DNA of 64,000 bases from Pseudomonadota bacterium (GCA_043823065.1 JBDRBB010000008.1:639-64638); one strand, 5' to 3'. Positions 4,643 to 36,400 are shown, counted from the first letter of the stretch. The notes: generated from the sequence alone by a model not told the origin. Numbers and translations are program-made.

Positions 4643-4654
4643 AAGGAGTTTAAG

Positions 4655-6040
4655 ATGGTGGAGAAAGAATTTGATTCAAAAACTGAATTATTAAAACTAG
4701 AAGATGCTCAATCTGTAGTATCTTTGCGTAAATGTCAGCTGATCATTGCCGAAGGTCCTAATCGCGGTAAAAAGTTTTCCTTAAATAAAAGCACGGTTAT
4801 TATTGGCAAGCGCGACACTAATGATATTGTGCTTAAAGATACCACGGTTTCTAGAACTCATTTGGAAATTAAACATTTGGAAGACAGTTTTTTGCTTAGG
4901 GATTTGGAATCAACCAACGGTACTTTTGTCAATGGCACGCGAGTTAAAGAAGCTTATCTTTCTCCTGGCGATTTAATTAAAGTTGGCAATACCAGTTTAG
5001 AATTTGTGGCTTATGATGAAAAAGTGCGTATTGAGCCAGCTGATCGCGATTCTTTTAGCAATCTTTTTGGCAAGAGCACCAAGATGCGCCAGATTTTTGC
5101 CATTATGGAAAGAATTTCCGCATCTGTAGCCACAGTTATTATTGAAGGTGAAACCGGCACAGGCAAAGAATTAGTAGCCCGGGCAATTCATGAAAACAGT
5201 GCCAGAAGCAAAAAACCATTTGTGGTGTTTGATTGTTCTTCAGTCGCGCCTAATTTAATTGAAAGTGAACTTTTTGGTCATGAAAAGGGTTCATTTACTG
5301 GCGCGGTCAAAGCCAGAAGAGGAGCATTTGAAGAAGCTACAGGCGGAACCATATTTTTAGATGAAATTGGCGAACTAACCCCAGATTTGCAGCCAAAACT
5401 TTTAAGAGCTTTGGAACAAAGGGAAATTAAAAAGGTTGGCGCCAACATACCAACAAAAATCGATGTACGTGTAATTTGCGCTACTAATCGCAATTTAAAA
5501 AAGGAAGTTGATGAAGGAAGATTTAGGGAAGATTTGTATTATCGCTTGTCAGTGGTTAAAATCCTGCTGCCACCTTTGCGAGAACGTTTAGAGGATATCC
5601 CAGGTTTAGTAGAAGCTTTTTTAACCACAGGCAAATTTAATCAATTACCAGATGGCTCTTATAAGGTGCGCCGGGTGGAAGACGATGCCTTGAAATTATT
5701 GGCGCGTTATGAATGGCCAGGCAATGTGCGCGAACTAAATAATGTAATTGAGCGTGCTTGTTCATTTGTGGAAGGAGATGCAATTTCCAAACCGCATTTA
5801 GATTTTATTTTTGCGGAAATGTATCATGGCGAAGATCGCACTGAACGCATGGCTGTTGATACAGAAATTCCTTTTAAAGATGCTAAACAAAAAATAGTAG
5901 AGTCTTTTGAAAAAGAATATTTAATTGATTTGTTGCAAAGGAATAACAATAATCTTTCCAAAGCTTCCAGAGAAGCCAAGATAGACCGCAAACATCTGCG
6001 CAATCTTTTAAAGAAATATGACATTCCGACCAAGGACTAG
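4655..6040 (+). CDS. FHA-domain sigma54-dependent transcriptional activator
   Basis: FHA (IGKR...VSRTH...DLESTNGTFVNG), GETGTGKE, ESELFGHEKGSFTGA, FLDEIGE, WPGNVREL, Fis-type HTH. Confidence 0.95.
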   Translation: MVEKEFDSKTELLKLEDAQSVVSLRKCQLIIAEGPNRGKKFSLNKSTVIIGKRDTNDIVLKDTTVSRTHLEIKHLEDSFLLRDLESTNGTFVNGTRVKEAYLSPGDLIKVGNTSLEFVAYDEKVRIEPADRDSFSNLFGKSTKMRQIFAIMERISASVATVIIEGETGTGKELVARAIHENSARSKKPFVVFDCSSVAPNLIESELFGHEKGSFTGAVKARRGAFEEATGGTIFLDEIGELTPDLQPKLLRALEQREIKKVGANIPTKIDVRVICATNRNLKKEVDEGRFREDLYYRLSVVKILLPPLRERLEDIPGLVEAFLTTGKFNQLPDGSYKVRRVEDDALKLLARYEWPGNVRELNNVIERACSFVEGDAISKPHLDFIFAEMYHGEDRTERMAVDTEIPFKDAKQKIVESFEKEYLIDLLQRNNNNLSKASREAKIDRKHLRNLLKKYDIPTKD

Positions 6041-20091: not shown

Positions 20092-22368
20092 ATGAAACAA
20101 ATACAAAAGATTGTTGAACAGGTTATAAAAGAAAAAGGCTTTAACTATTCGGCAACTATTCCAATTTTACAGGGAGTGCAAAAAGAGCTGCGTTATTTGC
20201 CTTTGGAAGCCTTAGAACAAATTGCCAAAAAATGCGAAATTCCAGCAGCCCAGCTTTATGGAGTAGCTACTTTTTATACTCAATTTCGGCTTTCGCCAAT
20301 TGGCCGTCATTTAATTAAAGTTTGTCATGGCACAGCCTGTCATGTGGCTGGAGCGCTTGGTGTATCTGAAAGTTTAGGTGATCGTCTGAAAACAGATTAT
20401 GATGGTGGCACCACCAATGATAATGAATTTACTATTGAATCTGTGGCCTGCCTTGGTTGTTGCTCTTTGGCGCCAGTAATCATGATTGATGAAACTGTAT
20501 ATGGCAATCTAGATCGAACCAAGGCAAGCAAGACAGTTGATGATTTTACTGCCAGCCAAGGTCAGCAACAAGATTTGTTGGAAGGTATTACTATAGATAA
20601 GAAAGATTTGGCCGGGCAGGAAATTGCGCAAGTAATTATTGGTTTAGGTTCTTGCGGTATTGCCTCTGGTGGTAAAGTGGTTTTTGATTTTTTTAGCGCA
20701 GCAAAAAAGAAATTTGATTTGCCGTATCAGTTAATGGAAACCGGTTGTATTGGCATGTGTCACTGTGAACCATTGGTGGAGTTTATTGATCGTTCTGGAA
20801 AAAAGACTATCTATCGTAACATTCAACTCAAAGATGCTAAAAAACTTTTGCAAGATCATTTGGCTCAAGGAAAACCGTTTGAAAAACGCATAGTGGATTT
20901 AAAAACAGAAGGCAGCGAAGAATATGCCTTTTACGCCAAACAAGTGCGCATTGTTTTGGAAAATTGCGGTCAGCTAGATCCTGAATCAATTGATGAATAT
21001 ATTGCCAAAGGCGGCTATGCAGCGATCAAAAAAGTTCGCGAACAAATGAAGCCAGAGCAAGTTATTGCTGAAGTAAAAACTTCTGGTTTAAGAGGCAGAG
21101 GTGGCGCGGGTTTTTCTACTGGCCTAAAGTGGGAGTTTTGTCACAAGGCCCAAGGCACAGAAAAATACATTGTGTGTAATGCTGATGAAGGTGATCCAGG
21201 CGCGTTTATGGACCGTTCAGTTTTGGAAAGCGACCCCCACCGGGTTTTAGAAGGCATGATGATTGGCGCTTATGCTATTGGCGCTAAAAAAGGCTATATC
21301 TATTGCCGGGCTGAATATCCTTTAGCTGTTAAACGTTTGGAAATAGCTATTGCTCAAGCTAAAGCAAAATGTTTTTTGGGAAAAGATTTAGATATTATTA
21401 TTAAAGAAGGTGCTGGTGCTTTTGTGTGCGGTGAAGAAACAGCACTCATTGCTTCTATTGAAGGCAAGCGTGGCATGCCTAAGCTTCGTCCTCCGTTTCC
21501 AGCCCAATCTGGTTTATGGGGTAAGCCAACCAATATTAATAATGTAGAAACTTTTGCTAATATAGCTTGGATCATCAACCATGGTGCTCAAGAATATGCC
21601 AAACTTGGTACAGAAAAAAGCAAAGGCACCAAAGTCTTTGCTTTGGCAGGTGATATCAAAAGAGGAGGCTTAGTGGAAGTGCCCATGGGCATTACGCTTA
21701 TGGAAGTAATCAGAGATATTGGAGGTGGCACTTCTTCTGGTTTGCCTGTAAAAGCGGTGCAGCTAGGTGGGCCTTCTGGTGGTTGTATCCCAGCATCTTT
21801 AATGGGAACAATTGTGGATTACGATGCTGTTAATGCCACAGGCGCTATTATGGGTTCTGGCGGCATGGTGGTTATGGATACCTCTGCTTGTATGGTGGAT
21901 ATTGCCAAGTTTTTCTTGAATTTTACCCAAAATGAATCTTGTGGAAAATGCACTTTTTGCCGCATTGGCACGCGCCGCATGTTGGAAATTTTAACCAGAA
22001 TTACAGAAGGTGAAGGAAGAAATGGCGATATTGAACTATTAGAAGAATTGGCTCAGCAAATTAAAATTTCCAGCTTATGTGGTTTGGGCCAGACCGCGCC
22101 CAATCCAGTGTTGACCACTATTAGATATTTTCGAGATGAATATGAAGCTCATATTAAAGAAGGCAAATGTCCAGCAGGTAAATGCCGGGCTCTGATTAGT
22201 TTTGATATTTCGAAAAAATGTATTGGGTGCGGAGTTTGTATTAAAGCTTGTCCAGTGGATGCCATTACTGGCGAAAAGAAAAAGCTGCATGTCATTTCCC
22301 AGGAAAAATGCACCAGGTGCGGGGCGTGCAAGCAGGTTTGCCCTGTGGATGCTGTTGAAATTAAGTGA
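20092..22368 (+). CDS. NuoE-NuoF (HydC-HydB/BfuC-BfuB-like) fusion flavoprotein
   Basis: NuoE CHGTAC...CLGCC; thioredoxin-like 2Fe-2S; GLRGRGGAGF, NADEGDPG, GAGAFVCGEET, SCGKCTFCRIG; C-terminal 2x[4Fe-4S]. Confidence 0.92.
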   Translation: MKQIQKIVEQVIKEKGFNYSATIPILQGVQKELRYLPLEALEQIAKKCEIPAAQLYGVATFYTQFRLSPIGRHLIKVCHGTACHVAGALGVSESLGDRLKTDYDGGTTNDNEFTIESVACLGCCSLAPVIMIDETVYGNLDRTKASKTVDDFTASQGQQQDLLEGITIDKKDLAGQEIAQVIIGLGSCGIASGGKVVFDFFSAAKKKFDLPYQLMETGCIGMCHCEPLVEFIDRSGKKTIYRNIQLKDAKKLLQDHLAQGKPFEKRIVDLKTEGSEEYAFYAKQVRIVLENCGQLDPESIDEYIAKGGYAAIKKVREQMKPEQVIAEVKTSGLRGRGGAGFSTGLKWEFCHKAQGTEKYIVCNADEGDPGAFMDRSVLESDPHRVLEGMMIGAYAIGAKKGYIYCRAEYPLAVKRLEIAIAQAKAKCFLGKDLDIIIKEGAGAFVCGEETALIASIEGKRGMPKLRPPFPAQSGLWGKPTNINNVETFANIAWIINHGAQEYAKLGTEKSKGTKVFALAGDIKRGGLVEVPMGITLMEVIRDIGGGTSSGLPVKAVQLGGPSGGCIPASLMGTIVDYDAVNATGAIMGSGGMVVMDTSACMVDIAKFFLNFTQNESCGKCTFCRIGTRRMLEILTRITEGEGRNGDIELLEELAQQIKISSLCGLGQTAPNPVLTTIRYFRDEYEAHIKEGKCPAGKCRALISFDISKKCIGCGVCIKACPVDAITGEKKKLHVISQEKCTRCGACKQVCPVDAVEIK

Positions 22369-22458: not shown

Positions 22459-24588
22459 GTGAGTAAAGTTATGCAAATTACTTTAAATGGAAAAAAAGTT
22501 GAATGTCAGGCAGGGGAAACAATTTTGCAGGTGGCCAAAAGAAACGGCATTGAGATTCCCACGCTTTGTTATCAGGAAGAACTTAAACCTTATGGCTCTT
22601 GTTTTATTTGTGTGGTGGAAGTTAAAGGTTTAGCGCGTTTAGTTCCTTCCTGCGCCACTTTAGTGACAGAGGGCATGGAGGTGGAAACTCATAGTGAAAA
22701 AGTAAAAGCATCGCGCAAAGTATGTATTGAACTTTTACTTTCTGATCATGTTGGAGATTGTCGCGCACCTTGTAGTGTAAAATGCCCAGCTGGAATTGAT
22801 ATCCCAGGTTTTGTTTCTCTTCTAGCTCATAGCAGCGAAGCTGAAGCAATTAAGTTAATCAAAGAAGCCTTGCCTTTGCCAGCAAGTTTGGGCCGGGTGT
22901 GCCCCCGTCCTTGCGAAACAGAATGCAGGCGCGCTTGTGTGGATGATGCAGTATCCATTTGTTTTTTGAAACGTTATATTGCGGACAAAGATATGGCTTC
23001 GCCAAATCCCTATGTAGCTACTCCAGGTAAGCCCACTGGTAAAAAAGTAGCAATAGTTGGCGCTGGCCCAGCAGGACTTTCAGCTGCTTTTTATTTAAGA
23101 AAAGATGGCCACGCAGTGACTATCTATGATGCTCACGAGGAAGCAGGTGGCATGTTGCGTTACGGTATTCCAGCTTATCGCCTGCCGCGCGACGTTCTGG
23201 CCAAAGAAGTTGAACTGATTGAAAAAATGGATGTAAAATTCCAGATGCAGCAACGATTGGGCAAGGAATTTACCTTAAAACAATTACAAAATGATTATGA
23301 TGCGGTGTTTTTAGCTATTGGCGCCCAATCAGCTTCAGATATGCGGGTAGAAGGTGAAAAAGAAGGTGGTGCAATTTCCGGAATTGCCTTTTTAGAAGAC
23401 ATTGCCAAAAACAAACCTGTTAATATTGGCCATGATGTATATGTGGTTGGTGGAGGTAATACAGCTATTGATGCTGCTAGAACTTCTTTGAGAATAGGCG
23501 CTAAAAATGTTTCTATTCTTTATCGTCGTTCGCGTGAAGAAATGCCAGCCAACAATTTTGAAGTAGAAGCAGCTTTGCACGAAGGAGTGAAAATTGAATT
23601 TTTAACTTTGCCCACCAAGATGGAAAAAAACACAGATGGAATAACTCTAACTTGCGTGCGCATGCAGTTAGGTGAACCAGATGCTTCTGGTCGCAGGCGT
23701 CCCATTCCTGTTGAAGGTTCAGAATTTAAGGTTAAAGCTTCAGCTGTAATTTCAGCTATTGGTCAAAATGTTGATCCAGCTTGTCTGGATAATGAACCCT
23801 TTGATATTAAGCTTACCAAGTGGAACAGTTTAGATGTGAATGAGCAAACTTTTGAAACCAATCTGTCTGGAGTATTTGCAGGAGGTGATTGTGTATCAGG
23901 CGCTGATATTGCAGTGACCGCAATTGCTGCTGGCAAGAAAGTGGCAGCTTCAATTGATCAATTTTTAAAAGGGGAAAAAATAACCGGCATTCCCAAACAA
24001 TATTTACATGCTATGGGTGAAAAAAAAGAAGATACACCCCAAGAACAATTTATTGGTGTTAAAAAACAAGAAGTAGCGCGTATGCCAGAGTTGCCAGCAG
24101 AAAGTAGGGTAAAGAGTTTTGAAGAAGTAGAAACTGGTTTTATTTTTGAACAAGCCAAAAAAGAAGCTGAACGTTGTTTATCTTGCGGTTGTCGTTCTTT
24201 TGAATCCTGCACCATGCGCAAATTGGCTGACGAGTATGGTTGTTTGCCAGATCGTTTTGCCGGAGAAAAACGTCATTTCTTTGTTGATGATTCTCATCCT
24301 CAAATTAGATATGAAGCGCACAAATGTATTTTGTGCGGATCTTGCATCAGGGTTTGTTCAGAAGTAAAAAATCTAGATGCCTTGGGGTTTGTCAAACGCG
24401 GTTTCTCAACTCAGATGAAACCAATTTTTGAAAAACCTTGGAAAGAATCAACCTGTGATTCTTGCATGAAGTGCGTGCCCATGTGTCCAACCGGAGCGAT
24501 TTCATTAAAAACAACTCCAGCTGAAGAAGTGTTAGCTTTACGTGAAAAAGGCGTCGACGCCAGCAAAGACGTTCCAAAAGATACTTAA
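22459..24588 (+). CDS. NuoG-like Fe-S scaffold with inserted GltD/NfnL-like FAD/NADP(H) domain (StnC/Nfn-BfuA-like)
   Basis: IPTLC...CFICVVE 2Fe-2S; GRVCPRPCETEC; GAGPAG; GGGNTAID; YRRSREEMPA; CILCGSCIRVC and CDSCMKCVPMCP; start may be ATG 22471. Confidence 0.88.
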   Translation: MSKVMQITLNGKKVECQAGETILQVAKRNGIEIPTLCYQEELKPYGSCFICVVEVKGLARLVPSCATLVTEGMEVETHSEKVKASRKVCIELLLSDHVGDCRAPCSVKCPAGIDIPGFVSLLAHSSEAEAIKLIKEALPLPASLGRVCPRPCETECRRACVDDAVSICFLKRYIADKDMASPNPYVATPGKPTGKKVAIVGAGPAGLSAAFYLRKDGHAVTIYDAHEEAGGMLRYGIPAYRLPRDVLAKEVELIEKMDVKFQMQQRLGKEFTLKQLQNDYDAVFLAIGAQSASDMRVEGEKEGGAISGIAFLEDIAKNKPVNIGHDVYVVGGGNTAIDAARTSLRIGAKNVSILYRRSREEMPANNFEVEAALHEGVKIEFLTLPTKMEKNTDGITLTCVRMQLGEPDASGRRRPIPVEGSEFKVKASAVISAIGQNVDPACLDNEPFDIKLTKWNSLDVNEQTFETNLSGVFAGGDCVSGADIAVTAIAAGKKVAASIDQFLKGEKITGIPKQYLHAMGEKKEDTPQEQFIGVKKQEVARMPELPAESRVKSFEEVETGFIFEQAKKEAERCLSCGCRSFESCTMRKLADEYGCLPDRFAGEKRHFFVDDSHPQIRYEAHKCILCGSCIRVCSEVKNLDALGFVKRGFSTQMKPIFEKPWKESTCDSCMKCVPMCPTGAISLKTTPAEEVLALREKGVDASKDVPKDT

Positions 24589-24596
24589 TTATATCC

Positions 24597-24803
24597 CCGC
24601 TCACCCTGAGCTTGTCGAAGGGTGGAGTACTCGTCATTCCTGTATCTTTTTGTCATTCCCGCGAAAGCGGGAATCCCATGCGCTCATTACTGTCATTCTG
24701 AGCAAAGCGAAGAATCCCAAGTAAAAACCCCTGCAGCAGGAAAGGTGTTTGAAGCAGCTGCACTCCACCAAGTATCCGTTCATCCTGAGCTTGTCGAAGG
24801 ATG
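24597..24803. repeat. Mosaic cluster of different REP-like units
   Basis: CACCCTGAGCTTGTCGAAGGGTG; GTCATTCCCGCGAAAGCGGGAATCC; GTCATTCTGAGCAAAGCGAAGAATCC; CATCCTGAGCTTGTCGAAGGATG. Confidence 0.8.
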
Positions 24804-24812
24804 CACCATAAA

Positions 24813-24938
24813 GGGGCATTGCTCTCGTGGCTCTCGGCCGACTTTTTTTATTTCCCTATGAACCTTACGGCGTATTCCTATTTTTCGTCATACCGGGAAA
24901 GTAAAAAAAGCCGCCCTACGCCACTAGCGCAATACCCA
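24813..24938. repeat. Long imperfect hairpin element
   Basis: GGGCATTGC..GTGGC..CTTTTTTTATTTCCC.TATGA pairs with TCATA..GGGAAAGTAAAAAAAG..GCCAC..GCAATACCC. Confidence 0.65.
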
Positions 24939-25042
24939 AGGTGTCATCTAATTAAGGATTATCTTTAACTTGTCGAATTAACTAACAAACAAAGTTCTAG
25001 ACTCAAATAACGCTAGTTGAGTATAGTGGTGAACAAATTTAT

Positions 25043-25606
25043 ATGTTTGCATCAATTATTATATATCTAATTCAAGAACTCTTAACTATGGTTAAGATAA
25101 TATGGAGAGATCCTATGGAATCTCAAATTCTAATTTCATTTATTAGTGCTTTTTTTGGCGCCGGTATTTTACTTTTTTTACAATGGTCCTTTTCAGAACG
25201 AGAGATTCGTCATTTTTGGGAAATAACAGATGATAAAGAATCGCTTCAACATATTATTTATATTTCAAATAATAATAAGCATGCGGCATCTATATTCAAT
25301 CTTGAAGTTGTTACAAGAAATGGAAAAGTGCTTAAAAGAGGAACTACGATGAGTTTGAAGTCTGCCAATGATATGAAGGATATATTTGCAAAAGTTGTTT
25401 TTTTAGAACCTTATCACGTATACCCCTTATGGATAGAGGTATATCGTAAGCATAACGGCAATAAAAATCCGAATGGCATAGAAAACAATGATGATATTAA
25501 ATTGTTAAGGTTCGAGTCCAATGTATGCGGAAGTGGAGCAAGAGGTGTCATTTCAAGGCTTTTCAAGAATAAGATAAGAAAGTATGAAATTAAAAAGCCG
25601 GACTAA
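25043..25606 (+). CDS. Hypothetical membrane-anchored protein (island cargo)
   Basis: Very AT-rich ORF with one TM (ILISFISAFFGAGILLFLQW); start uncertain (may be 25088 or 25115). Confidence 0.6.
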   Translation: MFASIIIYLIQELLTMVKIIWRDPMESQILISFISAFFGAGILLFLQWSFSEREIRHFWEITDDKESLQHIIYISNNNKHAASIFNLEVVTRNGKVLKRGTTMSLKSANDMKDIFAKVVFLEPYHVYPLWIEVYRKHNGNKNPNGIENNDDIKLLRFESNVCGSGARGVISRLFKNKIRKYEIKKPD

Positions 25607-25666
25607 TGAATCAATTTGTTTCGCTATCGCTGTTTTTTATGTTGTTCAATTAAAAACAAAATTTGG

Positions 25667-25704
25667 TGGACACGATACTCAATTGAAATAAGTATCGTGT
25701 CCCC
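25667..25704. repeat. Palindrome GGACACGATACT...AGTATCGTGTCC; half copy at 30481-30500
   Basis: ggacacgatactcaattgaaataagtatcgtgtcccc; ggggacgcgatacttatttc at 30481. Confidence 0.7.
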
Positions 25705-25774
25705 GGAATTTTTCCTGCAGGAATTTTTCAATGAACCATATTTAATTTGAAAGTTATCTGAGAATATTGAAGTT

Positions 25775-26224
25775 TTATATTTTAAACCCCACAAACGTTC
25801 CACCACCAGACATAGAATTACCTGAAAATGTGTTTCCACCAACAGTTAAAGAGGAGTAGCCACCATACATTTTTAGACCAATAGGGCGAAAATCTAGTTT
25901 TTCTACGATTGCAGAATATTGGTCTATCATTTTTACAGACAAAATTAATTCTTCGGAAATCATTACATTTAAAGAACCAGATTCTTCATAAACTTTTACA
26001 GCTGGATGCTTTGAGATAGATTCTTCAACAATAGTGACAAATTGATTTTTCTTTGAGTCTGCAAGAGCTTGAAGCCAAATCTTTGGTTTTTCACCTTTAC
26101 CTATTAAGATTGGTAAAACATCGCCTATAGCAACCAGGTTGCCACCACCGGAAAGCACATTGCTACAAATTGTTAATGTATTAAAAGGAATATAATTTTT
26201 AGGTATGTTTTTACGCGTTATCAT
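25775..26224 (-). CDS. Hypothetical protein (island cargo)
   Basis: 149 aa, beta-rich; 4-bp ATGA/TAA-type overlap with the upstream gene. Confidence 0.75.
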   Translation of the reverse strand: MITRKNIPKNYIPFNTLTICSNVLSGGGNLVAIGDVLPILIGKGEKPKIWLQALADSKKNQFVTIVEESISKHPAVKVYEESGSLNVMISEELILSVKMIDQYSAIVEKLDFRPIGLKMYGGYSSLTVGGNTFSGNSMSGGGTFVGFKI

Positions 26225-26919
26225 TTATTTTGTTCCTTAAATGCATGTCTTTTTGTTGGAGCTTCCTTAAAATGTTTTTCAATTTTTTTCATTACTTTTT
26301 TACGATCGTTTGGAAGACAAAGTCCGATTATATATAGGACTGCCGATAAAGCGATACCTATAACCAATGTTACTTTATCTCCCTTATTTATGTTTGCGAT
26401 ATTTGAGTAACCCTTAGCTAGAAGTTGAAGACCAAAACCAAAAGTTGTTAATGCGATACTAATAGCTAAGGTAAAGGTAATTGGTCTGCCACGCTTTATT
26501 CGTTCAAAGTCTATTTCGCGAAGAGAGTAATCTTTTTGCCATGTGCCAATATCCGCACCTGTCAACAAATCAGGGACAAATTGAGTTTCTGTTATCTCTC
26601 TATTACGCACGTTTTTTTCACTTTCTTCACTTGGTGCAATTATTTGGCAAGCTTTGAGAGCTCCAATTATTATGGTATGTTGTTCATAAAAAACATCCGG
26701 GCCGTATCCCGACATTAAACTTAAATTAAAGTTTTTAAACAATTTGTATGGTGTGCTATCTCTACCATAGTTTTTAATTATGAAGTCTTCAACTTGGGCA
26801 ATCCAGGCTTGGAAGTCAGCAGATGGACTACTGTATATGCCCGTGTTTCCTTGTCGGCTATTATTTTTGAAAGTAAAAGTGTATCCAGTGCTAATTAATT
26901 GTTCAATTATTTCTTTCAT
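26221..26919 (-). CDS. Hypothetical protein with helical N-terminal domain and two C-terminal TM helices
   Basis: 232-aa ORF; TMs ITFTLAISIALTTFGFGLQLL and VTLVIGIALSAVLYIIGLCL. Confidence 0.75.
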   Translation of the reverse strand: MKEIIEQLISTGYTFTFKNNSRQGNTGIYSSPSADFQAWIAQVEDFIIKNYGRDSTPYKLFKNFNLSLMSGYGPDVFYEQHTIIIGALKACQIIAPSEESEKNVRNREITETQFVPDLLTGADIGTWQKDYSLREIDFERIKRGRPITFTLAISIALTTFGFGLQLLAKGYSNIANINKGDKVTLVIGIALSAVLYIIGLCLPNDRKKVMKKIEKHFKEAPTKRHAFKEQNK

Positions 26920-26929
26920 TTTAATTTCG

Positions 26930-26950
26930 TAACCACTGGTAACGGAGCAA
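26930..26950. repeat. Island spacer repeat, copy A (partial)
   Basis: TAACCACTGGTAACGGAGCAA, about 11 bp upstream of ATG 26919. Confidence 0.75.
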
Positions 26951-26967
26951 GTTAGTTTATTAATGAT

Positions 26968-27375
26968 TTAAATATTATATAAAGCAAATATTCCTAACAG
27001 CAATCCAATTTCACCCAATATAACTGATAATACTGCTAATCTGGCAGAAACTCGGTAAGAGGGATCAGATGCACGCCATGCCCACTTTAATTCACCCAAT
27101 AACCCCTTTTGTTTAAGTTTAACATCTACTTCTTCGTTGGGTTTAACATTTAGTTTGCTTCTGGTAAATTCGTCAAGTATGAGTCTTTCATCGCCATATT
27201 CTCGGCAACCACGAACAATAACCAGAGTTTGTTGATCCCCAATCTTCAATTCACAAATAGTACAATCTTTTATCGACACTCCCTTAGCATCTTTTCGATA
27301 TTTCTCTGGTATTCTTGCAATATCTTTTAGTCTATCTTCTTTGTGTGTTTTAGAAATTTTTAATTTTATATCAAT
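26968..27375 (-). CDS. Hypothetical protein, possible double-psi-barrel-like domain plus C-terminal TM
   Basis: Frame open from 27381 (IDIKLKISKTHKEDRLKDIARIP...LILDEFTRSKLNVKPNEEVDV); ATT start after GGTGG, or 5'-truncated; ORF track gives GTG 27279. Confidence 0.6.
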   Translation of the reverse strand: MDIKLKISKTHKEDRLKDIARIPEKYRKDAKGVSIKDCTICELKIGDQQTLVIVRGCREYGDERLILDEFTRSKLNVKPNEEVDVKLKQKGLLGELKWAWRASDPSYRVSARLAVLSVILGEIGLLLGIFALYNI

Positions 27376-27382
27376 TAATTTT

Positions 27383-27480
27383 TAACCACCGGTCACGGAG
27401 CAAAAAGGCACGGAGCAAATTGCTTTTACGCCGTGCGAAATACGCTCTAAAACGATATGGCGTATTGGGGTTGATGTCAA
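27383..27480. repeat. Island spacer repeat, copy B, with minus-strand sigma70 promoter
   Basis: TAACCACCGGTCACGGAGCAA...GCTTTTACGCCGTGCGAAATACG...AAACGATATGGCGTATTGGGGTTGATGTCAA; TTGACA-N17-TATCGT on the minus strand. Confidence 0.85.
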
Positions 27481-27484
27481 AAAA

Positions 27485-28489
27485 TCAGGTTAAAATATAT
27501 TTACCTGATTTTTTGCTTCCAATTCGTTTCACTAACTTGGCTTGAATAAGTGGTTTAAGTAAATCTAGGGCGCCTTGTTTTGAGATATTTAGTTCCGACC
27601 ATATCTCTTTTGGTGCCATGCTCTTTTTCTCTCGTAACAAATTCAATAATTGTTCTTGTTTAGGAGTCAAAACAAGTGTTTTTTTGTGGCTGCTTAATCG
27701 TAGCTGATCTATTCGTTGTAAAACGTTTTCTAGGGTTAAATGTAACACTTCTGCACAATACTCAAGCCAACCTGTTAAATCATCATCTTGTGTTCTAACT
27801 TGGTCTAGGGCCTTATAATAACGAGGTCTGTTTTCCCAATAAGTTTCATCAATTGAAAATATATGATGGGTATCAAAACCGCGTCTATAAAGTTCCCATA
27901 AAGCAAGTGCTCGACCAACACGCCCATTTCCATCTGCAAAAGGATGAATTGCTTCAAATCGATAATGAAGAATTGAAGAAGAAATAACTGGTGACCACTT
28001 CTGACTTTGATCATTCCACCATTCAATTAAATCTTTCATTAGCTTTGGAACTTCTTTTGCTTTTGGTGGTAAGTAGTGGCCAACTCGCACTTCTATTTTA
28101 CGATATTCGCCAGAACTGCCTTGATCCATTACACCAGTTGAGATAATTATATGAAGTTTTAGCAAATCTTTATCTGTTATCTTTTTAATTTCCGTAGCTT
28201 TCTCAATTAATCTGAGAGCTGCAAAATAATTTAAAACTTCCTGTTTTGATCTATTTGTTCTTGTTAGTAGCTGCCCCCCTTGTTCCAATATTTTAACCTC
28301 TTGAAGTGTTAAAGGATTTCCTTCAATCGCGGTTGAAGCATGGGTGTTTTTAACTCTAGCATCTTTTTGAAGGGCAGGAATCCAAGGAACTTGAACTGTA
28401 GCAGCCAATATTTGTTCTCTAAATGAAGCAATTTCTTCAATCATTTTAAGTAAATGAGCAGTAATTGTGAATTTTGGTTTGTAAGCCAT
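27485..28489 (-). CDS. Fic-family protein with C-terminal winged HTH
   Basis: STAIEGN, HPFADGNGRVGR active-site motif, C-terminal HTH. Confidence 0.95.
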   Translation of the reverse strand: MAYKPKFTITAHLLKMIEEIASFREQILAATVQVPWIPALQKDARVKNTHASTAIEGNPLTLQEVKILEQGGQLLTRTNRSKQEVLNYFAALRLIEKATEIKKITDKDLLKLHIIISTGVMDQGSSGEYRKIEVRVGHYLPPKAKEVPKLMKDLIEWWNDQSQKWSPVISSSILHYRFEAIHPFADGNGRVGRALALWELYRRGFDTHHIFSIDETYWENRPRYYKALDQVRTQDDDLTGWLEYCAEVLHLTLENVLQRIDQLRLSSHKKTLVLTPKQEQLLNLLREKKSMAPKEIWSELNISKQGALDLLKPLIQAKLVKRIGSKKSGKYILT

Positions 28490-28505
28490 ATTTGTTATTT
28501 TACAG

Positions 28506-28550
28506 ATAAGTCAAGTATAAGTCAAGTATAAGTCAAGTTGTTAGTCAAGT
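28506..28550. repeat. 11-bp tandem direct repeats upstream of fic
   Basis: ATAAGTCAAGT x3 plus TTAGTCAAGT. Confidence 0.8.
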
Positions 28551-28634
28551 GGGTGGAAGCTAGTTTTCGTAAAAAAGGGGATGTTTCTCTTTTTGTAAGC
28601 CTTTGAAATTATTAAGGTTTATTTTGCTATTGGA

Positions 28635-28740
28635 TTTTAACGCCGTACGCCGGTCGCTGTACGCCGTATGAAATACGAGCGACTAGCGACTAGATACGGT
28701 TTTTAAACGATATGGCGCAATGGGGTTGATGTCAAGGTTG
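28635..28740. repeat. Island spacer repeat, copy C, with minus-strand sigma70 promoter
   Basis: ACGCCGTACGCCGGTCGCTGTACGCCGTATGAAATACG...TAAACGATATGGCGCAATGGGGTTGATGTCAAGGTTG. Confidence 0.85.
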
Positions 28741-28947
28741 GGAAGTTGCTGGTAAAATTTGGGCTCTATCTATATTAATCTTTCAAAACCATTGCTAAAC
28801 AAAAAGCGTTTTAAAAATATTGCAGTAATACTCTTGAACTTGTCCAATTGGCGTCAAAGCTGATAAACTTTTATATTGCTTTACATACTTAGCTCTTCTA
28901 AAGGTTTTACTCTAAATAAACATTACAAACATTATTAGAGGTATTAT

Positions 28948-29265
28948 ATGGCATGGTTATTATTGCTAGGTGCTGGAGTATTAGAGGTTGCTTGGCCAAT
29001 TGGTTTTAAATATTCCAATGGATTTACTAAAATATTACCCACCATTCCTACAATGCTTGCTCTTTTACTTAGCTTTTTCTTAATGTCGCAAGCTGCTAAA
29101 ACTTTGCCAATTGGAACTGTCTATGCAATTTGGACGGGTATTGGTGTATTAGGCACAGCTATTTGTGGAATTTTATTGTTTCAAGAATCTTATAATTTAT
29201 TTCGCATGGCATGCATCTTTTTGATTTTCTTGGGTATAGCTGGCCTCAAGTTTACAACTAAGTAA
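28948..29265 (+). CDS. SMR-family efflux transporter (SugE/Gdx-like)
   Basis: MAWLLLLGAGVLEVAWPIGFKYSNGFT, LPIGTVYAIWTGIG; four TMs. Confidence 0.9.
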   Translation: MAWLLLLGAGVLEVAWPIGFKYSNGFTKILPTIPTMLALLLSFFLMSQAAKTLPIGTVYAIWTGIGVLGTAICGILLFQESYNLFRMACIFLIFLGIAGLKFTTK

Positions 29266-29299
29266 AAGGATTCCATTCAAACACGCCAACATTGTTTTC
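29258..29299 (-). pseudogene. 3'-end remnant of a homolog of the 31153..31578 gene
   Basis: ENNVGVFEWNPFT* versus DGNVGVFEWNPLG* at the end of 31153..31578. Confidence 0.7.
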
Positions 29300-29300
29300 T

Positions 29301-29400
29301 TAACCACCGGTCAAGGAGCAAATTGCTTTTACGCCGTACGCCGGTCGCTAGAGATAAACAGTATGGCGCAATGTGCTTTTTACTACATATTCTTTTACGA
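29301..29400. repeat. Island spacer repeat, copy D
   Basis: TAACCACCGGTCAAGGAGCAAATTGCTTTTACGCCGTACGCCGGTCGCT...TATGGCGCAATG, then TTTTACTACATA shared with copy E. Confidence 0.85.
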
Positions 29401-29437
29401 AAAAAATATTGGAGCAAATTGATTTTTTTATGCTTTG

Positions 29438-29860
29438 TTACAATTCAATTTTCAACGCCTCTTTTAATGCTCCAGCAAATTCATCTGCTTTTTTGGCAAA
29501 CTGTTTTACCAAGGAAATATATTGATCCATGGTTATGCCAAAATAATCATGCACACTGCCGTTTCTAGCATCCAACGCATTGGCCCAAAATTCCGGATCA
29601 TCAATCCATCCAAATTTTATCGCCTCTTGAATGGCTGGCCTGGGACCAAAAGCTTCCGCACCTTGATAATCGGCCGCTGTTTTCATTACTTTCCAACAAT
29701 ATTCAAAACAGACTTCAAATCTTTTTACCACCGCATCTGTGCAAATCTCATTTAGTTCAGATTTATTTTTATTAGCTTCCAAAAGTTCCAAAGATTCTTT
29801 TAATTTGCTTAAAGCTTCTTTAAAAGTTGCCATAGTTTTTTTTACATTGTTGATGGTCAT
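29438..29860 (-). CDS. HEPN protein (HI0074-type nucleotidyltransferase substrate-binding family), putative toxin
   Basis: DAVVKRFEVCFEYCWKVMK and ARNGSVHDY (Rx4H). Confidence 0.9.
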   Translation of the reverse strand: MTINNVKKTMATFKEALSKLKESLELLEANKNKSELNEICTDAVVKRFEVCFEYCWKVMKTAADYQGAEAFGPRPAIQEAIKFGWIDDPEFWANALDARNGSVHDYFGITMDQYISLVKQFAKKADEFAGALKEALKIEL

Positions 29861-30408
29861 GCTATCTCCTTTAATTTTATGGAATCTGGATATAGTTTAG
29901 TAATTCGTATACTGCTTGTTGCAATTGAATTTAAAAACCAAGCTGGTGCTTCATTTAAACACACCAAATCAATGCGATAGGGAAAAGCCAGATCAATTAG
30001 CTCTTGCTTGAAAAGAGAAAAACCTTTTGGTCGCTTGTCTAGGCGAAAATACAGAGCAAAATCCCAATCGCTTTTAATGCCTTTTTTACCCCTAGCCCGA
30101 GAACCAATTAAAAAAAGATCTGCTTGATTTTTTTGAGCATATTCTTCAAATTTTAGAGCTATTTTTTTTATTTTTGGTGGAGAATCTTGAATAATTGATT
30201 CAAAATCTGTTGTTTTGGTTGTTATTTCCTCAAAATCAACTCCAAGTTCAGCCAAAACCTTTTCAAATGAAGTGGAAAAAATAGATTTACCAGAAAACAT
30301 ATTATATAATGATTGTCTTGATACACCACACTTATGGGCAAATTCAGTGATATTTCCCCCCTTTGCCCTTAAATGCGATTCGAACTTATTCTTATCTAAT
30401 AACAACAT
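29857..30408 (-). CDS. HTH-MNT fusion (minimal nucleotidyltransferase antitoxin)
   Basis: N-terminal HTH (ITEFAHKCGVSRQSLY); GSRARG..SDWD and IDLV NTase motifs; 4-bp overlap with the HEPN gene. Confidence 0.88.
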   Translation of the reverse strand: MLLLDKNKFESHLRAKGGNITEFAHKCGVSRQSLYNMFSGKSIFSTSFEKVLAELGVDFEEITTKTTDFESIIQDSPPKIKKIALKFEEYAQKNQADLFLIGSRARGKKGIKSDWDFALYFRLDKRPKGFSLFKQELIDLAFPYRIDLVCLNEAPAWFLNSIATSSIRITKLYPDSIKLKEIA

Positions 30409-30502
30409 ATTTGTATTGTATTACATATAAGACGTTTTGTCTATAAATTAAGAAGTAAGGTCTTGTCTTTTAAAAATTATGGGGACGCGATACTTATTTC
30501 AG

Positions 30503-30610
30503 AACCACTGGTTTTCTTATTTTACTACATACGCTTTTACGCCGTGCGCTGTACGCCGTACGAAATACGTTTTTAAACGATATGGCGCAATGGGGTTGAT
30601 ATCAAGGTTG
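30503..30610. repeat. Island spacer repeat, copy E
   Basis: AACCACTGGT...GCTTTTACGCCGTGCGCTGTACGCCGTACGAAATACG...TAAACGATATGGCGCAATGGGGTTGATATCAAGGTTG. Confidence 0.85.
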
Positions 30611-30640
30611 AGAAAATAGTGAGATAAGATGCTATTATTT

Positions 30641-30854
30641 AAAATTCACGGAGGGGGTAAGGTGTTTGAAGCAGGCGCACGAAACCGGGCTATTCATCAT
30701 GAAAATATTGCTACTTGCTTTATGAGTTAGAAGATTTCCTCTGTCATCATCTAACTCATGCAAGCAGTCAATATTTTCATTCTTCATACGCCCTTATTTC
30801 GTAAGCGCGCGCCTAAATTGCTTCAAACACCTTCTTACCCCCTCCGTGAATTTT
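30641..30854. mobile_element. MITE-like 214-bp nested palindrome
   Basis: AAAATTCACGGAGGGGGTAAGGTGTTTGAAGCA ... TGCTTCAAACACCTTCTTACCCCCTCCGTGAATTTT; inner stem ATGAAAATATTG...ATGAGTTAGA/TCTAACTCAT...CAATATTTTCAT. Confidence 0.65.
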
Positions 30855-30943
30855 GCAGTACCGAAAGCCGCTTAATGAACTGGATAATCAGGGTTGCTTT
30901 GCTGTGCCAGAAATGACAAAGCAGAATCGTCAGACGGAGCAAG

Positions 30944-31148
30944 CTGTTTACCAGATAGGTTTGACGGAGAAAAGGGTTTGTTCTGAAGTAAAAAACCCTG
31001 GAACCAGTCAACTTGCGATGCTTGCCTCAAATGCGTGCCAATGTGCCCAACTGGTGCGATTTCTCTAAAAGTAACCCCTGCTGAGGAAGTCTTGGCCTTG
31101 CGCCAAAAAGGCGTCGATGCCAGCAAGGATGTTCCAAAAGGGGGCTAA
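30944..31148 (+). pseudogene. Diverged, internally deleted 3' remnant of the 22459..24588 oxidoreductase gene
   Basis: KPWNQSTCDACLKCVPMCPTGAISLKVTPAEEVLALRQKGVDASKDVPKGG* is 43/51 identical to the intact C-terminus; short blocks match about 24241-24269 and 24349-24371. Confidence 0.9.
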
Positions 31149-31152
31149 GAGA

Positions 31153-31578
31153 TTAACCAAGCGGGTTCCATTCAAACACGCCCACATTGCCATCTTGATC
31201 AATAATGGCGATTTCTCTTTGGCGATTTCCGCTAAAACTTCCCAAATAAACTTGCACGCCTAAAGAAGAAGTGTTGCGCAAGCTTGGTTTGCGGTTAGAA
31301 ACTGTAGTGGTTCTAAATAAGGTTTGAGGTTGATTTGTTAAAGAATTTTCTGCAAACACCCGCACACTATCAAAACCAAATTTTCTCAAATTTGTTTCAA
31401 CTCTAATATAATGATCTTGATGAAAAGTTGTGGGATTGGCCGAAGCTCTATGAACTATTTGCTGTTCTTCATGGCAGGTGCGCAGATCTTGAGCATTTTT
31501 TATTTGCAAATCTACTGGTTGCCCAGCTTGCTCAATCTCTAGTCTTGTAAATGGCCTTAATATCTTTTCCCAGACCAT
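31153..31578 (-). CDS. Hypothetical protein
   Basis: 141 aa with AGGAG SD; C-terminus duplicated at 29258-29299. Confidence 0.75.
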   Translation of the reverse strand: MVWEKILRPFTRLEIEQAGQPVDLQIKNAQDLRTCHEEQQIVHRASANPTTFHQDHYIRVETNLRKFGFDSVRVFAENSLTNQPQTLFRTTTVSNRKPSLRNTSSLGVQVYLGSFSGNRQREIAIIDQDGNVGVFEWNPLG

Positions 31579-33462: not shown

Positions 33463-36400
33463 ATGGACAATGAGCTTCCTCAAAATATAGCAGGTCGGTG
33501 GCAGGTGGTAAAAGAACTAGGTTCAGGGGCCATGGGGCAGGTTCTTTTGGCCAAAGCAGAAGATGGCATTCCTGTAGCAATCAAACTTATGACCATGACC
33601 TTGACCAAAGATCAAAAACAAAGAGTGGAAAGGTTTAAGTCTGAATTTTCCATTCTTAAGGAATTATCTCATCCTGGAATCAATAAGGTTTATGATTTTG
33701 GTTATGATGAACCAACTCAACATTATTATTTTACTTCAGAATATATTGCTGGCGACCCATTTTTAAAAGCAACAGAATTGCTAAACGTGGATGAGATTGA
33801 AGAATTGTTTGTAGAAATTTTAAGATCTCTGGAATATCTGCACAGTCATGGCATCATGCATGCTGATATTAAATCAACAAACATTTTAGTAGAAGCCAAT
33901 CCTCAAGAAAATTCTCGGATCAAGCTGATTGACTTTGGTTTAGCAGCCCTGGGAACTTTTGATAAGGTCGTGGGCACCCCTTCCTATATGGCGCCAGAAG
34001 TTATTTTGCGCAACAAACCAGATAACCGTGCAGATTTATATTCACTTGGCGTGCTAATTTACACGGCTATTACCAGATATAATCCATTTAAGGCCAGGCA
34101 GTTAAATGAAATGTTTGAAAGACAAATCAATGTTGTGCCTGAACCGCCATCTTTTTATGAACCAACAGTGCCCAAATATTTAGATGATATAATAATGAAG
34201 CTTTTGAAGAAAGTACCTGGTGAGCGTTTTTCTTCAGCAGCGCATGTTATTAGAGCGCTGGCTTATGGCAGCGGTAAGTCTTATCCAGTGGAAACTCAGG
34301 AAACATTTTTGGGTTACTTGCCGACCAAAGGTAATATTGTGGGCAGAAAAAAAGAACTGGCTTCAATTAAGGAACATTGTTTGGCGATTAAGGATTTAAA
34401 ACCGCAAACACCAGCCGGGCTTTGTCTAATGGGCGAAGCTGGTACAGGTAAAAAAAGGTTGTTAACTGAACTAAAATATTTTGCCCAGCTCAATGAACTG
34501 GAGGTAGTTGAACTTAAAGTTTTAGACGAAAAAATTCTGGCCGGGTTTAACGAAGAGCTAAAGCTCTTAATGAAAGAACCGCCCAAGCGCAGCTATATAA
34601 TAGTCGTTGGTGTTTTAGGCTGGCTCGCCACACATAAAGCTGGCAGGCAAACCATTGAACAGTTACGCAAACTTATTAACTGGCTTGGTTTTGTGCGCGC
34701 CCTGTCTCCGGTTAAAGATGTCAGCCGGGTTTTGCTGGCATTTAGCGCCAACCAAGATGAGCTAAATCTATTTAGTTATATGCTGGATTTGCCGGAAAAT
34801 GAATTAAATATAGTTGAGCTTAAAAATTTTGATCAGCAAGAAACCAAAGAGTATCTTACAGTTTTAACAGGCGTGGAAGAAGTGCCCCAGGAATTGGTTG
34901 CTGAATTATATAAAAGAACTCAAGGCAATCCTTTGTTTATTACTGAAGTTATGAAAGAGTTGGTAAAACAAGGTATGCTTTTTGACAAAATTGGTCGCTG
35001 GAATAAAGAAGCGATTGAAGATATTGGTATTAGTTTTGCAAAATTGAAAGTGCCCCAAACGCTAACCCAGATGTTGGTTTCAGCTTATGCCGCTACTTTA
35101 CCAGCAGAAAAAGAAATTTTAGAAGCCTTGGCTGTTTGGAATAGACCGGTTAGTGCAGAAGAATTAAAAGCAATTGCTAGCTCAGAAAAAATTTTTGAGG
35201 TTCTGTCTTCTTTGGTTAAGACTAATACTGTTTTTTTCGATAATATCAATGGGGCGTATTATTTTCAAAACGATTTACTAAAAGATGTTGTCTATGAAAA
35301 CATTTCAAAAGAGAAAAAAGCAGATCTGCATCAATTAATCACCTCATTTTTAAAAACACACCAGCCTGAAAATTTTTCAGAAATTAACTGGCATTTGGGT
35401 AGGTGTGCTGAAGATCAAGAAGCTGTAGATGCCTTAATTCGTTTGGGCCTGCATTATTTAAAAAACTATAAAGTATTAGATTCCATAACAAACTTTAGCG
35501 AAGCCCTTGCTCGCGGCCAAGTAGCTGACTATCGCTTAAATGAAATATTGCTGCACTTAGGTGAGGCCTATACTCAAGCCAGGCGCTATGTTCAAGCAAT
35601 TGAAGTTTATCAAAAACTTTTGGACAAATTAAAATCTCAGGGGGATGAGGAAAGCCTGGAAGTAATCGAGACTTGGCAAAAATTGGGTGTGGTTTATTTG
35701 CGCTATGGTGATTTAGGTCATAGTAAGGAAATTTTAGGCAAAGCGCAAAAAGCCTTGGAAAAAATATCAGGGAAACTTCCTTTAAAATTAAAAGTTTCCA
35801 ATCATTTAGCCAGACTTGCTTTTTTGGAAGGCAAGCTGGATCTGGCTGCCAATATTTATAAGGAAAATAAGGACAGGTGGAAGGTTTTGTCGCCAGATGA
35901 AAAAAAACAGGTATTAAATAATGATTTGGCTCATGTTTATCTGCGCATGAATAAATTTGATCTGGCGGAAAAAGAATTAAATGCAGATATTAAATATTTG
36001 GAAAGCATTAAAGAAGATAAAGAACTGGAAAGAGCATATTATGGAATCGCTGAGCTGTATCGCGAAAAAGGAGATTTAGACCAAGCTATTCTCTATTTTG
36101 AAAAAGCCATTAGCCTTGCCAAAAATATCTATGATTCTGAGTTGCTGCTTTATACTTATAATGGTTTGGGCAATGCCTATAATGCTAAAGGAGAGCAAGC
36201 CAAGAGTTTATATTGGTATGAGCGCGGCCTGGATTTGGCGGCGCGTACTGGTGAGGATTCAAACGCAGCAGCAATAAGCGTAAACATTGGCTTGATAAAA
36301 GAAACTCAGAATGATTTAGAACAGGCTGCCCACCACTTTGATTCTGCAATACGTATTATCAACCGAGTTGAGAAAAAAACCAGTTTTGAATTAGGCTACT

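Follow-up and report, generated by a model that had tools for sequence, protein, structure and literature searches.

This study concerns a 6.5-kb insert between two convergent genes in a 64,000-nucleotide (nt) stretch of DNA from a Pseudomonadota bacterium (GCA_043823065.1, JBDRBB010000008.1:639-64638), referred to here as the window, which is part of a 1.89-Mb genome of 27 contigs with a guanine-plus-cytosine (GC) content of 39%. The first gene, here O, encodes an iron-sulphur (Fe-S) flavoprotein oxidoreductase of 709 amino acids (aa); the second is called geneX and encodes 141 aa. Copies of the 3' ends of both genes lie inside or at the edge of the insert:

22459–24588, plus strand: intact O, 709 aa, a GltD-like Fe-S flavoprotein (Pfam Fer2_4, Fer4_20, Pyr_redox_2, Fer4)
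24241–24588, plus strand: the part of intact O that is present a second time as a remnant
29258–29294, minus strand: geneX remnant, the last 11 codons and stop of geneX
30934–30943, plus strand: b motif ACGGAGCAAG, 10 nt, adjoining the O remnant
30945–31148, plus strand: O remnant, the pseudogenised 3' end of an oxidoreductase gene of the other tail type
31153–31578, minus strand: geneX, 141 aa, 4 nt from the stop of the O remnant

A sequence-only reading of this DNA had given the order as O, cargo, a reversed geneX remnant, more cargo, an O remnant in the orientation of O, and finally geneX on the opposite strand. Our analysis bore out this order, along with the claims that the ACGGAGCAAG motif adjoins the O remnant and that a spacer, copy D (from 29295), adjoins the geneX remnant. 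Read from O to geneX, the insert consists of a repeat block (24589–24939), cargo (approximately 24940–30640), an element (30641–30854), 89 nt of further sequence and the O remnant. The cargo is AT-rich, with GC of 0.31–0.39 in the insert versus 0.39–0.47 in the flanks.

Intact O is paired with a NuoF-like gene at 20092–22368, and its best NCBIfam match is PRK12814. Its C-terminal tail, with which no gene travels, is a 4Fe-4S ferredoxin-like domain. The second copy of the O 3' end was confirmed at 30945–31148 as three in-register pieces with a broken frame: 30945–30974 corresponds to 24241–24270 (24/30 nt), 30973–30995 to 24349–24371 (22/23 nt) and 30991–31148 to 24431–24588. Two internal deletions had been described, and indeed 24271–24348 and 24372–24430 of intact O are missing from the remnant; both deletions are edged by 2–5 nt of microhomology and both break the frame, so that the O remnant is a pseudogene fragment. 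Its left edge is uncertain by about 20 nt, as the 20 nt before 30945 match O in register at 10 of 20 positions, and any further homology to O upstream of 30945 is at chance level (165 of 300 shuffles scored as high or higher). The stretch 30925–30950, where the edge is uncertain by 20 nt, resembles both O and the b-c part of the spacers that separate the cargo genes; this fits joining at a microhomology, short of proof. We found no exact shared core at the edges of the duplication; identity between the copies is approximately 80% from their first base onwards. A crossover inside the last piece of the remnant is unlikely, since no identical run there is longer than 13 nt.

Over the last 53 codons, intact O and the remnant are identical at 123 of 159 nt (77%) and at 44 of 53 codons (stop included). 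Their differences are distributed over the three codon positions as 8/3/25, with a proportion of synonymous differences (pS) of 0.69 and of nonsynonymous differences (pN) of 0.099; the alignment and dN/dS comparison that the sequence-only reading had proposed gave a dN/dS of 0.056. Over all 63 shared codons pN/pS is 0.11, at the low end of the range given by 8 pairs of working orthologues (0.11–0.19), in line with the earlier argument that the synonymous divergence speaks against a recent duplication. Since this ratio is as low as that of working orthologues, nearly all of the divergence of the remnant arose under purifying selection in another lineage, and the two O tails diverged as working genes in different lineages. 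Had the tail instead been duplicated within this genome and then decayed, the decay would have pushed pN far above the observed 0.07–0.10.

We next compared both tails with those of related proteins. A tree built on the 63 residues present in both copies resolves a single fork, the pairing of the intact copy with P0001 (support 85/81). The remnant lies outside this pair and does not group with the intact copy to the exclusion of all relatives, the outcome that would have refuted the sequence-only reading. P0001 is the closest full-length relative of O, 88% identical over the body, and its tail is of the intact type (47/50 residues identical to the intact tail versus 40/50 to the remnant). The remnant has a different nearest relative. 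By a protein search for short fragments we found P0072, a 191-aa fragment at a contig end, which among 79 relatives is the best match to the last 52 residues of the remnant (47/52, with 42 for the next best and 43 for the intact copy). P0072 has exactly the tail encoded on a metagenome contig of depth 3.5 from the public sequencing run X1. This contig follows intact O over 24357–24404, continues with 26 other letters, and then follows the remnant over 30991–31139 at 90% identity or more. The 26 letters, compared by eye, differ from the intact copy at 8 of 26 positions, and they restore, in frame, the piece lost from the remnant. The reading frame ends two codons past the equivalent of 31139 and is followed by a dispersed repeat. 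An intact gene with a remnant-type tail is thus present in the same metagenome.

With P0072 included, intact O itself divides into two parts, as shown by its differences from the two relatives and the interval in which its affinity changes:

Residues 519–642 of O: 7/124 differences from P0072, 23/124 from P0001
Residues 643–709 of O: 10/67 differences from P0072, 5/66 from P0001
24304–24405, plus strand: switch interval, from P0072-like to P0001-like in intact O; likely a homologous crossover

At sites where P0072 and P0001 differ from each other, the window agrees with P0072 rather than P0001 by 18:2 up to residue 615 and by 3:8 from residue 650. The contrast is significant (Fisher p 0.0007, with four sites that match neither protein dropped), though the test does not tell which of the three proteins recombined. 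Intact O is a mosaic, with a P0072-like body and a P0001-like stretch of about the last 60 codons. The switch interval agrees with the change on the X1 contig at 24404 and with the 22/23-nt piece at 24349–24371. An identity profile against P0001 alone has no break, and the break is visible only once P0072 is added. Gene trees of the 5' and 3' parts of O had been proposed as a check; the two parts have different nearest relatives, and the boundary lies between nt 24304 and 24405.

The other convergent gene has a displaced tail as well. A copy of the geneX 3' end had been reported, and 29268–29294 matches 31163–31189 at 25 of 27 nt; a search with the geneX tail across the 1.89-Mb genome returned these two matches only, with about 5e-7 expected by chance. 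The remnant reads NVGVFEWNPFT-stop, geneX reads NVGVFEWNPLG-stop, and the stop is equally distant in both. The remnant overlaps the stop of a small multidrug resistance (SMR) transporter gene in the cargo. Searches of Pfam, NCBIfam and PADLOC placed geneX in no family. Among 5.8 billion proteins it has only 4 matches (55–100% identity, one being the window's own), the form in the relative G002 is 43% identical, and geneX is evolving much faster than its neighbour.

To place these tails in context, we compared the arrangement of O and geneX across related genomes. GeneX is present in 2 of 41 related genomes, the window's own included; the other is G002, from the same family and another genus. 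In G002, geneX and O are convergent with a gap of 9 nt. A metagenome scan with geneX returned 3 loci, and the two that were read (L029 and L030) encode the proteins of G002 in the same arrangement, adding no new lineage. The G002 junction is the empty site. Given the 9-nt gap in G002 and the 4 nt between the stops of the O remnant and geneX in the window, the remnant–geneX junction is of the ancestral type. Two other genomes of the family, G001 and G003, have no geneX and carry a CorA-like gene after O. The junction has been seen filled in one lineage and empty in one lineage, and a recombination hotspot at population level, as suggested earlier, is a possibility. The central proposal of the sequence-only reading, additive integration of a version of this locus from another lineage, is supported by the tail tree, by P0072 and the X1 contig, by the mosaic gene and by the empty site, and one of the two O tails is of foreign-lineage origin.

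We then asked how well public reads support the junctions, using Logan contigs from four runs: X1 and X3, which are one sample, X4 from another study, and X2 from a third study. The window may itself derive from one of these runs. Contigs without differences cover 28931–29438 (X1) and 29065–29625 (X3), spanning the SMR gene, the geneX remnant, a spacer and the HEPN gene of the cargo; 30801–31097 (X3), spanning the b motif and the O remnant with both deletions; and 31117–31267 (X4), spanning the junction of O remnant and geneX. Run X2 gave depth in 28 of 30 bins, and bins without depth were not counted as evidence. The contigs cover the local junctions, and none of them spans the island over its whole length. 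These junction-level contigs argue against a chimera assembled from two strains. Such an artefact draws some plausibility from the second lineage with a remnant-type tail in the same sample; however, the intact gene that co-occurs there lacks the deletions and broken frame of the remnant, Logan contigs 30801–31097 and 31117–31267 cover the junctions exactly, and the depth in run X2 comes from another study. We give hardly any credence to a contig joining two strains or to the in-genome duplication and decay considered above.

Several contig joints were set aside. An X3 contig joining 24939 to 30801 at first suggested a cargo-less haplotype, but it derives from elsewhere in the same genome (C8:147.5 kb), where these repeat modules are neighbours. 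With it fell the notion of one repeat element split by the cargo, as 30641–30854 is complete by itself. Other joints with sides of 22–25 letters lie in a repeat of depth 775–1200 and were not used. A joint of 24675, 25 letters and 30546 (X1, X2 and X3) may or may not come from this genome.

Recombinase, integrase and transposase domains were absent from the 84 open reading frames (ORFs) scanned (12 + 41 + 31). The genome has three PF00589 genes, all on other contigs (C3, C4 and C6), and a tRNA scan of the window returned 0 genes. These results bear on an integrase-borne island, in which site-specific integration in the 3' end of O would have supplied a substitute gene end and the integrase would later have been lost. 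Prophages and islands that insert into the 3' end of a protein gene can bring a substitute end, as at the icd site of Escherichia coli, and with this class of event as general background the outcome fits: the gene is intact by virtue of an incoming 3' end, and a diverged old end lies at the far junction, beyond AT-rich cargo. Unlike such integrations, the window lacks an integrase, an identical core and phage genes. The scan found neither an integrase nor a fragment of one, the two duplication edges share no identical core, no tRNA gene is present, and the geneX fragment would be left unexplained. We regard this origin as improbable.

Taken together, the locus very probably records additive, homology-anchored recombination with DNA of a related lineage, whichever the direction. 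In the ancestral state O and geneX would have faced each other stop to stop. Related-lineage DNA, consisting of its own O tail followed by AT-rich cargo, would then have recombined additively within the 3' end of O. Both copies retain 24241–24404, a product that a linear fragment cannot yield by simple replacement; a circular intermediate with one crossover, or a pre-duplicated donor with two crossovers (at its intact copy and at its remnant), would give the same result. No integrase would be needed, with the duplicated tails acting as homology arms. The geneX fragment may be the trace of a mirror-image event at geneX, in this lineage or in the ancestry of the donor.

As to which tail came in, the balance leans towards the intact one. 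That the intact tail arrived with the island, leaving the remnant as the displaced resident tail, has in our estimate an even chance of being right. The window and P0072 lineages would then have shared a remnant-type tail, and the present tail would come from a P0001-like donor. A homologous crossover near 24372–24404 would have joined the resident body to the incoming tail, keeping the gene whole; the resident tail would have been shifted 6.5 kb downstream, to 4 nt from geneX, and two pieces of it would since have been lost by short-repeat deletion. Inferred parts of this scheme are the identity of the incoming tail, where the crossover lay, that the donor was circular or pre-duplicated, and in what order the events took place. 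In its favour, one event accounts for the insert and the O remnant together, and the identities between O and its remnant (24/30, 22/23 and 123/159, or 80/96/80%) fit one crossover, located in the middle piece. Where pieces of the body type can be compared, the variant lineage differs from the window by approximately 9% (8/71, at most 4/48 and 1/23, where membership of the 71-nt contig in that same lineage is not shown) versus 6/30 in the first piece of the remnant. The variant lineage is matched about equally well by the remnant (90% or more) and by the gene body. Finally, one repeat motif, dispersed in relatives, is present in this genome only within the insert.

A number of observations weigh against the intact tail as the incomer, or against the scheme more generally. 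The intact-type residues at positions 662, 663, 668 and 670 are common to G002, P0001 and P0004, and it is the remnant type that is odd. The GC content at third codon positions (GC3) is 0.50 in the remnant versus 0.35 in the intact tail and 0.28 in the body, a tail-body difference that in 12 relatives ranges only from -0.13 to +0.11; third-position changes from intact to remnant comprise 14 from AT to GC versus 6 from GC to AT. Because of these residues and this composition, an incoming intact tail requires that the ancestor shared with the P0072 lineage had already undergone a tail replacement. In its first piece the remnant has L596, as does P0072 and unlike P0001, and the geneX fragment needs a second, earlier event. 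Moreover, P0072 and P0001 were compared as proteins rather than as nucleotide sequences, and no single Logan contig spans the whole island.

Much of this evidence speaks for the reverse direction, in which intact O is wholly native, the remnant was imported from a P0072-like lineage, and the P0072 lineage is the recombinant. A fragment holding an O tail and the adjacent geneX would have integrated by homology to geneX, its far end joining illegitimately at the b motif of a pre-existing island; the geneX remnant would be the resident's own displaced tail, left by an earlier geneX-anchored event. The intact tail pairs with P0001 (47 of 51 residues; support 85/81) and has the family's common residues, the GC3 of 0.50 in the remnant does not fit this genome, and L596 in the first remnant piece is as in P0072. 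In addition, at each of the three synonymous differences between the geneX tail and its remnant, geneX has G/C where the remnant has A/T. On the other hand, this direction needs three or more separate events in this lineage, namely the cargo's arrival, the geneX tail's displacement and the remnant's import, and also a tail replacement in the P0072 lineage. The 6 differences in 30 nt of the first remnant piece exceed the approximately 9% of the variant lineage's body-type pieces, the remnant-type tail on the X1 contig is followed by a repeat and not by geneX, and the supposed junction is flanked on either side by near-identical spacer copies. We consider the import of the remnant possible, though rather doubtful.

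We characterized the cargo by searching its ORFs against Pfam, NCBIfam and PADLOC:

25043–25606, plus strand: ORF of 187 aa, no match in Pfam, NCBIfam or PADLOC
25775–26919, minus strand: two ORFs of 232 aa and 149 aa with a 4-nt overlap, no Pfam, NCBIfam or PADLOC family
26968–27279, minus strand: ORF of 103 aa, no family in Pfam or NCBIfam
27485–28489, minus strand: Fic protein with a C-terminal winged helix (Pfam Fic 9e-21; PADLOC SoFic 1e-59)
28948–29265, plus strand: SMR transporter, SugE-like (Pfam; NCBIfam 7.9e-34, 116.1 bits, below the 126-bit cut-off)
29438–30408, minus strand: HEPN-like/MNT-like pair of the nucleotidyltransferase toxin-antitoxin type (Pfam NTase_sub_bind/HepT-like and Polbeta/NTP_transf_2)

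In NCBIfam, the HEPN/MNT pair matches HI0074 above the cut-off and MntA at 43.4 bits, below the 60-bit cut-off. The SMR gene is the sole copy in the genome, and its product is 90% identical to a G002 protein encoded at a different locus there. In G002 (contig C185) the SMR gene lies between a GTPase gene (an unnamed ORF, typA-like by eye) and an ABC-F gene; in the present genome (G000:C11:2967-5767) the ABC-F gene adjoins an opposite-strand ORF instead, and no SMR gene is found there. Upstream of the Fic gene, at 28510–28543, an 11-nt unit occurs three times, and one X2 contig has one unit fewer. A 27-nt palindrome lies between two convergent cargo genes (25658–25712); a 30-nt copy of its arm, 90% complementary, is found 4.76 kb away, upstream of the MNT gene (30472–30501), and a short stretch similar to the arm follows the repeat block at G000:C8:147.6 kb. 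Outside the insert, 33463–38478 encodes a 1671-aa protein that combines Ser/Thr kinase, GAF and sigma-54 activator domains with TPR repeats, and 2150–6040 holds a second kinase with five PEGA domains, plus an FHA-sigma-54 activator.

The cargo modules are separated by five to six related spacers, the 10-nt b motif at 30934 counting as the sixth, composed of parts that we denote a to d, and the insert also contains a repeat block and an element with inverted ends:

24589–24939, no strand: repeat block of short dispersed host-genome repeats, REP-like, GC 0.43–0.45
26924–26957, plus strand: spacer copy 1, a-b part only
27379–27480, plus strand: spacer copy 2, a-b-b-c-d
28640–28750, plus strand: spacer copy 3, c-d
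29295–29430, plus strand: spacer copy 4, adjoining the geneX remnant
30496–30620, plus strand: spacer copy 5, a related spacer stretch
30641–30854, no strand: 214-nt element with perfect 21-nt inverted ends, unique in the genome

The c-d part has 3 matches in the genome, all in the island. The a-b part, a motif of 21–35 nt with a copy at 27384–27404, is within this genome likewise confined to the island, with all copies in direct orientation; 12 of 93 genomes of the class also have it, often with 94–100% identity over 20–47 nt. In G002 (C112), G054 (C85) and G058 (C53) it occurs as inverted pairs 57–290 bp apart, which have the look of REP/REPIN-type repeats. One a-b copy in G002 supplies the stop codon of a 473-aa gene. 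The a-b part may be a sign that the island DNA stems from a lineage in which this repeat family lives. All 5 genomes searched have Y1-transposase-like ORFs, including 6 of 212–328 aa in the window's genome. A 21-nt a-b motif (4 mismatches or fewer) was absent from the 6 Y1_Tnp loci inspected, of 24 matches, and the Cas12f/TnpB-type family PF07282 was found in 0 of 5 genomes. In the repeat block, 24813–24945 recurs on contigs C8 and C10, and a 17-nt repeat core (24597–24624 and 24776–24803) has 47 copies in the genome (26 forward and 21 reverse; control pattern 0), with 30-nt stretches of the repeat at 100% identity in other families of the class. Sequences related to the ends of the 214-nt element lie at 24724–24756 and at G000:C8:147.6 kb.

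These spacers raise the possibility of a cassette system, either integron-like or an integrase-less cluster, in which the spacers would be recombination sites and the tails would have been captured as cassettes or at secondary sites. The insert resembles integron cassette arrays and integrase-less attC clusters in its small-gene modules, its related repeats of approximately 100 nt and its cargo: the spacers separate one- or two-gene modules of typical content (SMR, toxin-antitoxin, Fic and small ORFs), both remnants adjoin a spacer part, and near-identical spacers lie on either side of the geneX remnant. Unlike integron arrays, however, the window has no IntI or other integron integrase, no attC-like hairpin and no core sites, and its modules lie on both strands. 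In 8 folds the spacers folded no better than shuffled sequences (z from -0.03 to -2.84), with no end-to-end pairing. The attC core sites were not matched by eye, a comparison in which no attC covariance model was used, and an Rfam scan of the window (E ≤ 1) gave 2 chance-level matches, neither reaching the gathering score. The two remnants adjoin different spacer parts, and in relatives the a-b part acts as a dispersed inverted-pair repeat. A cassette system seems to us even a shade less probable than an integrase-borne island.

Among described repeat systems, REP/REPIN repeats and RAYT transposases offer a comparison (treated in PMC3337134 and PMC3116915). The likeness lies in the inverted a-b pairs of relatives and in the Y1-transposase-like ORFs; unlike in those systems, the copies in the window are direct, confined to the island and fused to a c-d part found nowhere else. 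For the b motif, a sigma-54 promoter was considered by eye and set aside.

Additive recombination of this kind has close counterparts. Jackson et al. (2009) reportedly dealt with rhs, and De Vries and Wackernagel (2002), Prudhomme (2002) and Meier and Wackernagel (2003) are said to have worked on homology-facilitated illegitimate recombination. By analogy, the closest described process would be C-terminal displacement at rhs, CDI (contact-dependent growth inhibition) and type VI secretion system (T6SS) effector loci. There, by one account, a new 3' end and downstream genes enter through homology in the gene body; the former end persists as a downstream orphan, and arrays grow as such events recur (PMC5361080). 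The same account proposes homology-facilitated illegitimate recombination for it, in which one end relies on homology while the other is joined illegitimately (PMC5361080). Like those loci, the window has a mosaic gene and an orphan tail. Unlike them, its gene is a housekeeping-type Fe-S flavoprotein, with no polymorphic toxin and no immunity gene, and tails have been displaced from both genes of a convergent pair. As no immunity gene travels with the tail, there would be no selection for the new tail as such. The case in the window thus seems to work like C-terminal displacement without belonging to those families. In transformable bacteria, homology-facilitated illegitimate recombination is described as bringing in foreign DNA via one homologous anchor, with no site-specific recombinase (PMC3240628). 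A candidate for such a short anchor is 24349–24371 (22/23 nt); the classical product replaces recipient DNA, whereas the window keeps 24241–24404 twice.

The kind of event is known and ordinary, and the record of it here is unusually good. Less usual are the displaced tails of both convergent genes and the visible presence of the partner lineage in the same samples. As a tentative and rather unlikely extension, the island may spread without a recombinase. The copied ends of both flanking core genes would be built-in homology arms, relatives with a plain O–geneX junction would be recipients through ordinary recombination, each transfer would leave a new chimeric tail remnant, and the REPIN-like spacers, as hairpins in relatives, would be preferred breakpoints for new modules. 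If this is true, the locus behaves as an integrase-free cassette collector.

For annotation, intact O is best treated as a recombinant gene and 30945–31148 as a pseudogene fragment rather than a small ORF. As the mechanism is already known, the general interest is modest. The locus is nonetheless a clean natural record of foreign genes entering the small genome of an uncultured groundwater/biofilm lineage without a mobile-element enzyme, and the gene ends left behind in it allow the events to be dated and oriented and reveal gene flow between sister lineages that co-occur.

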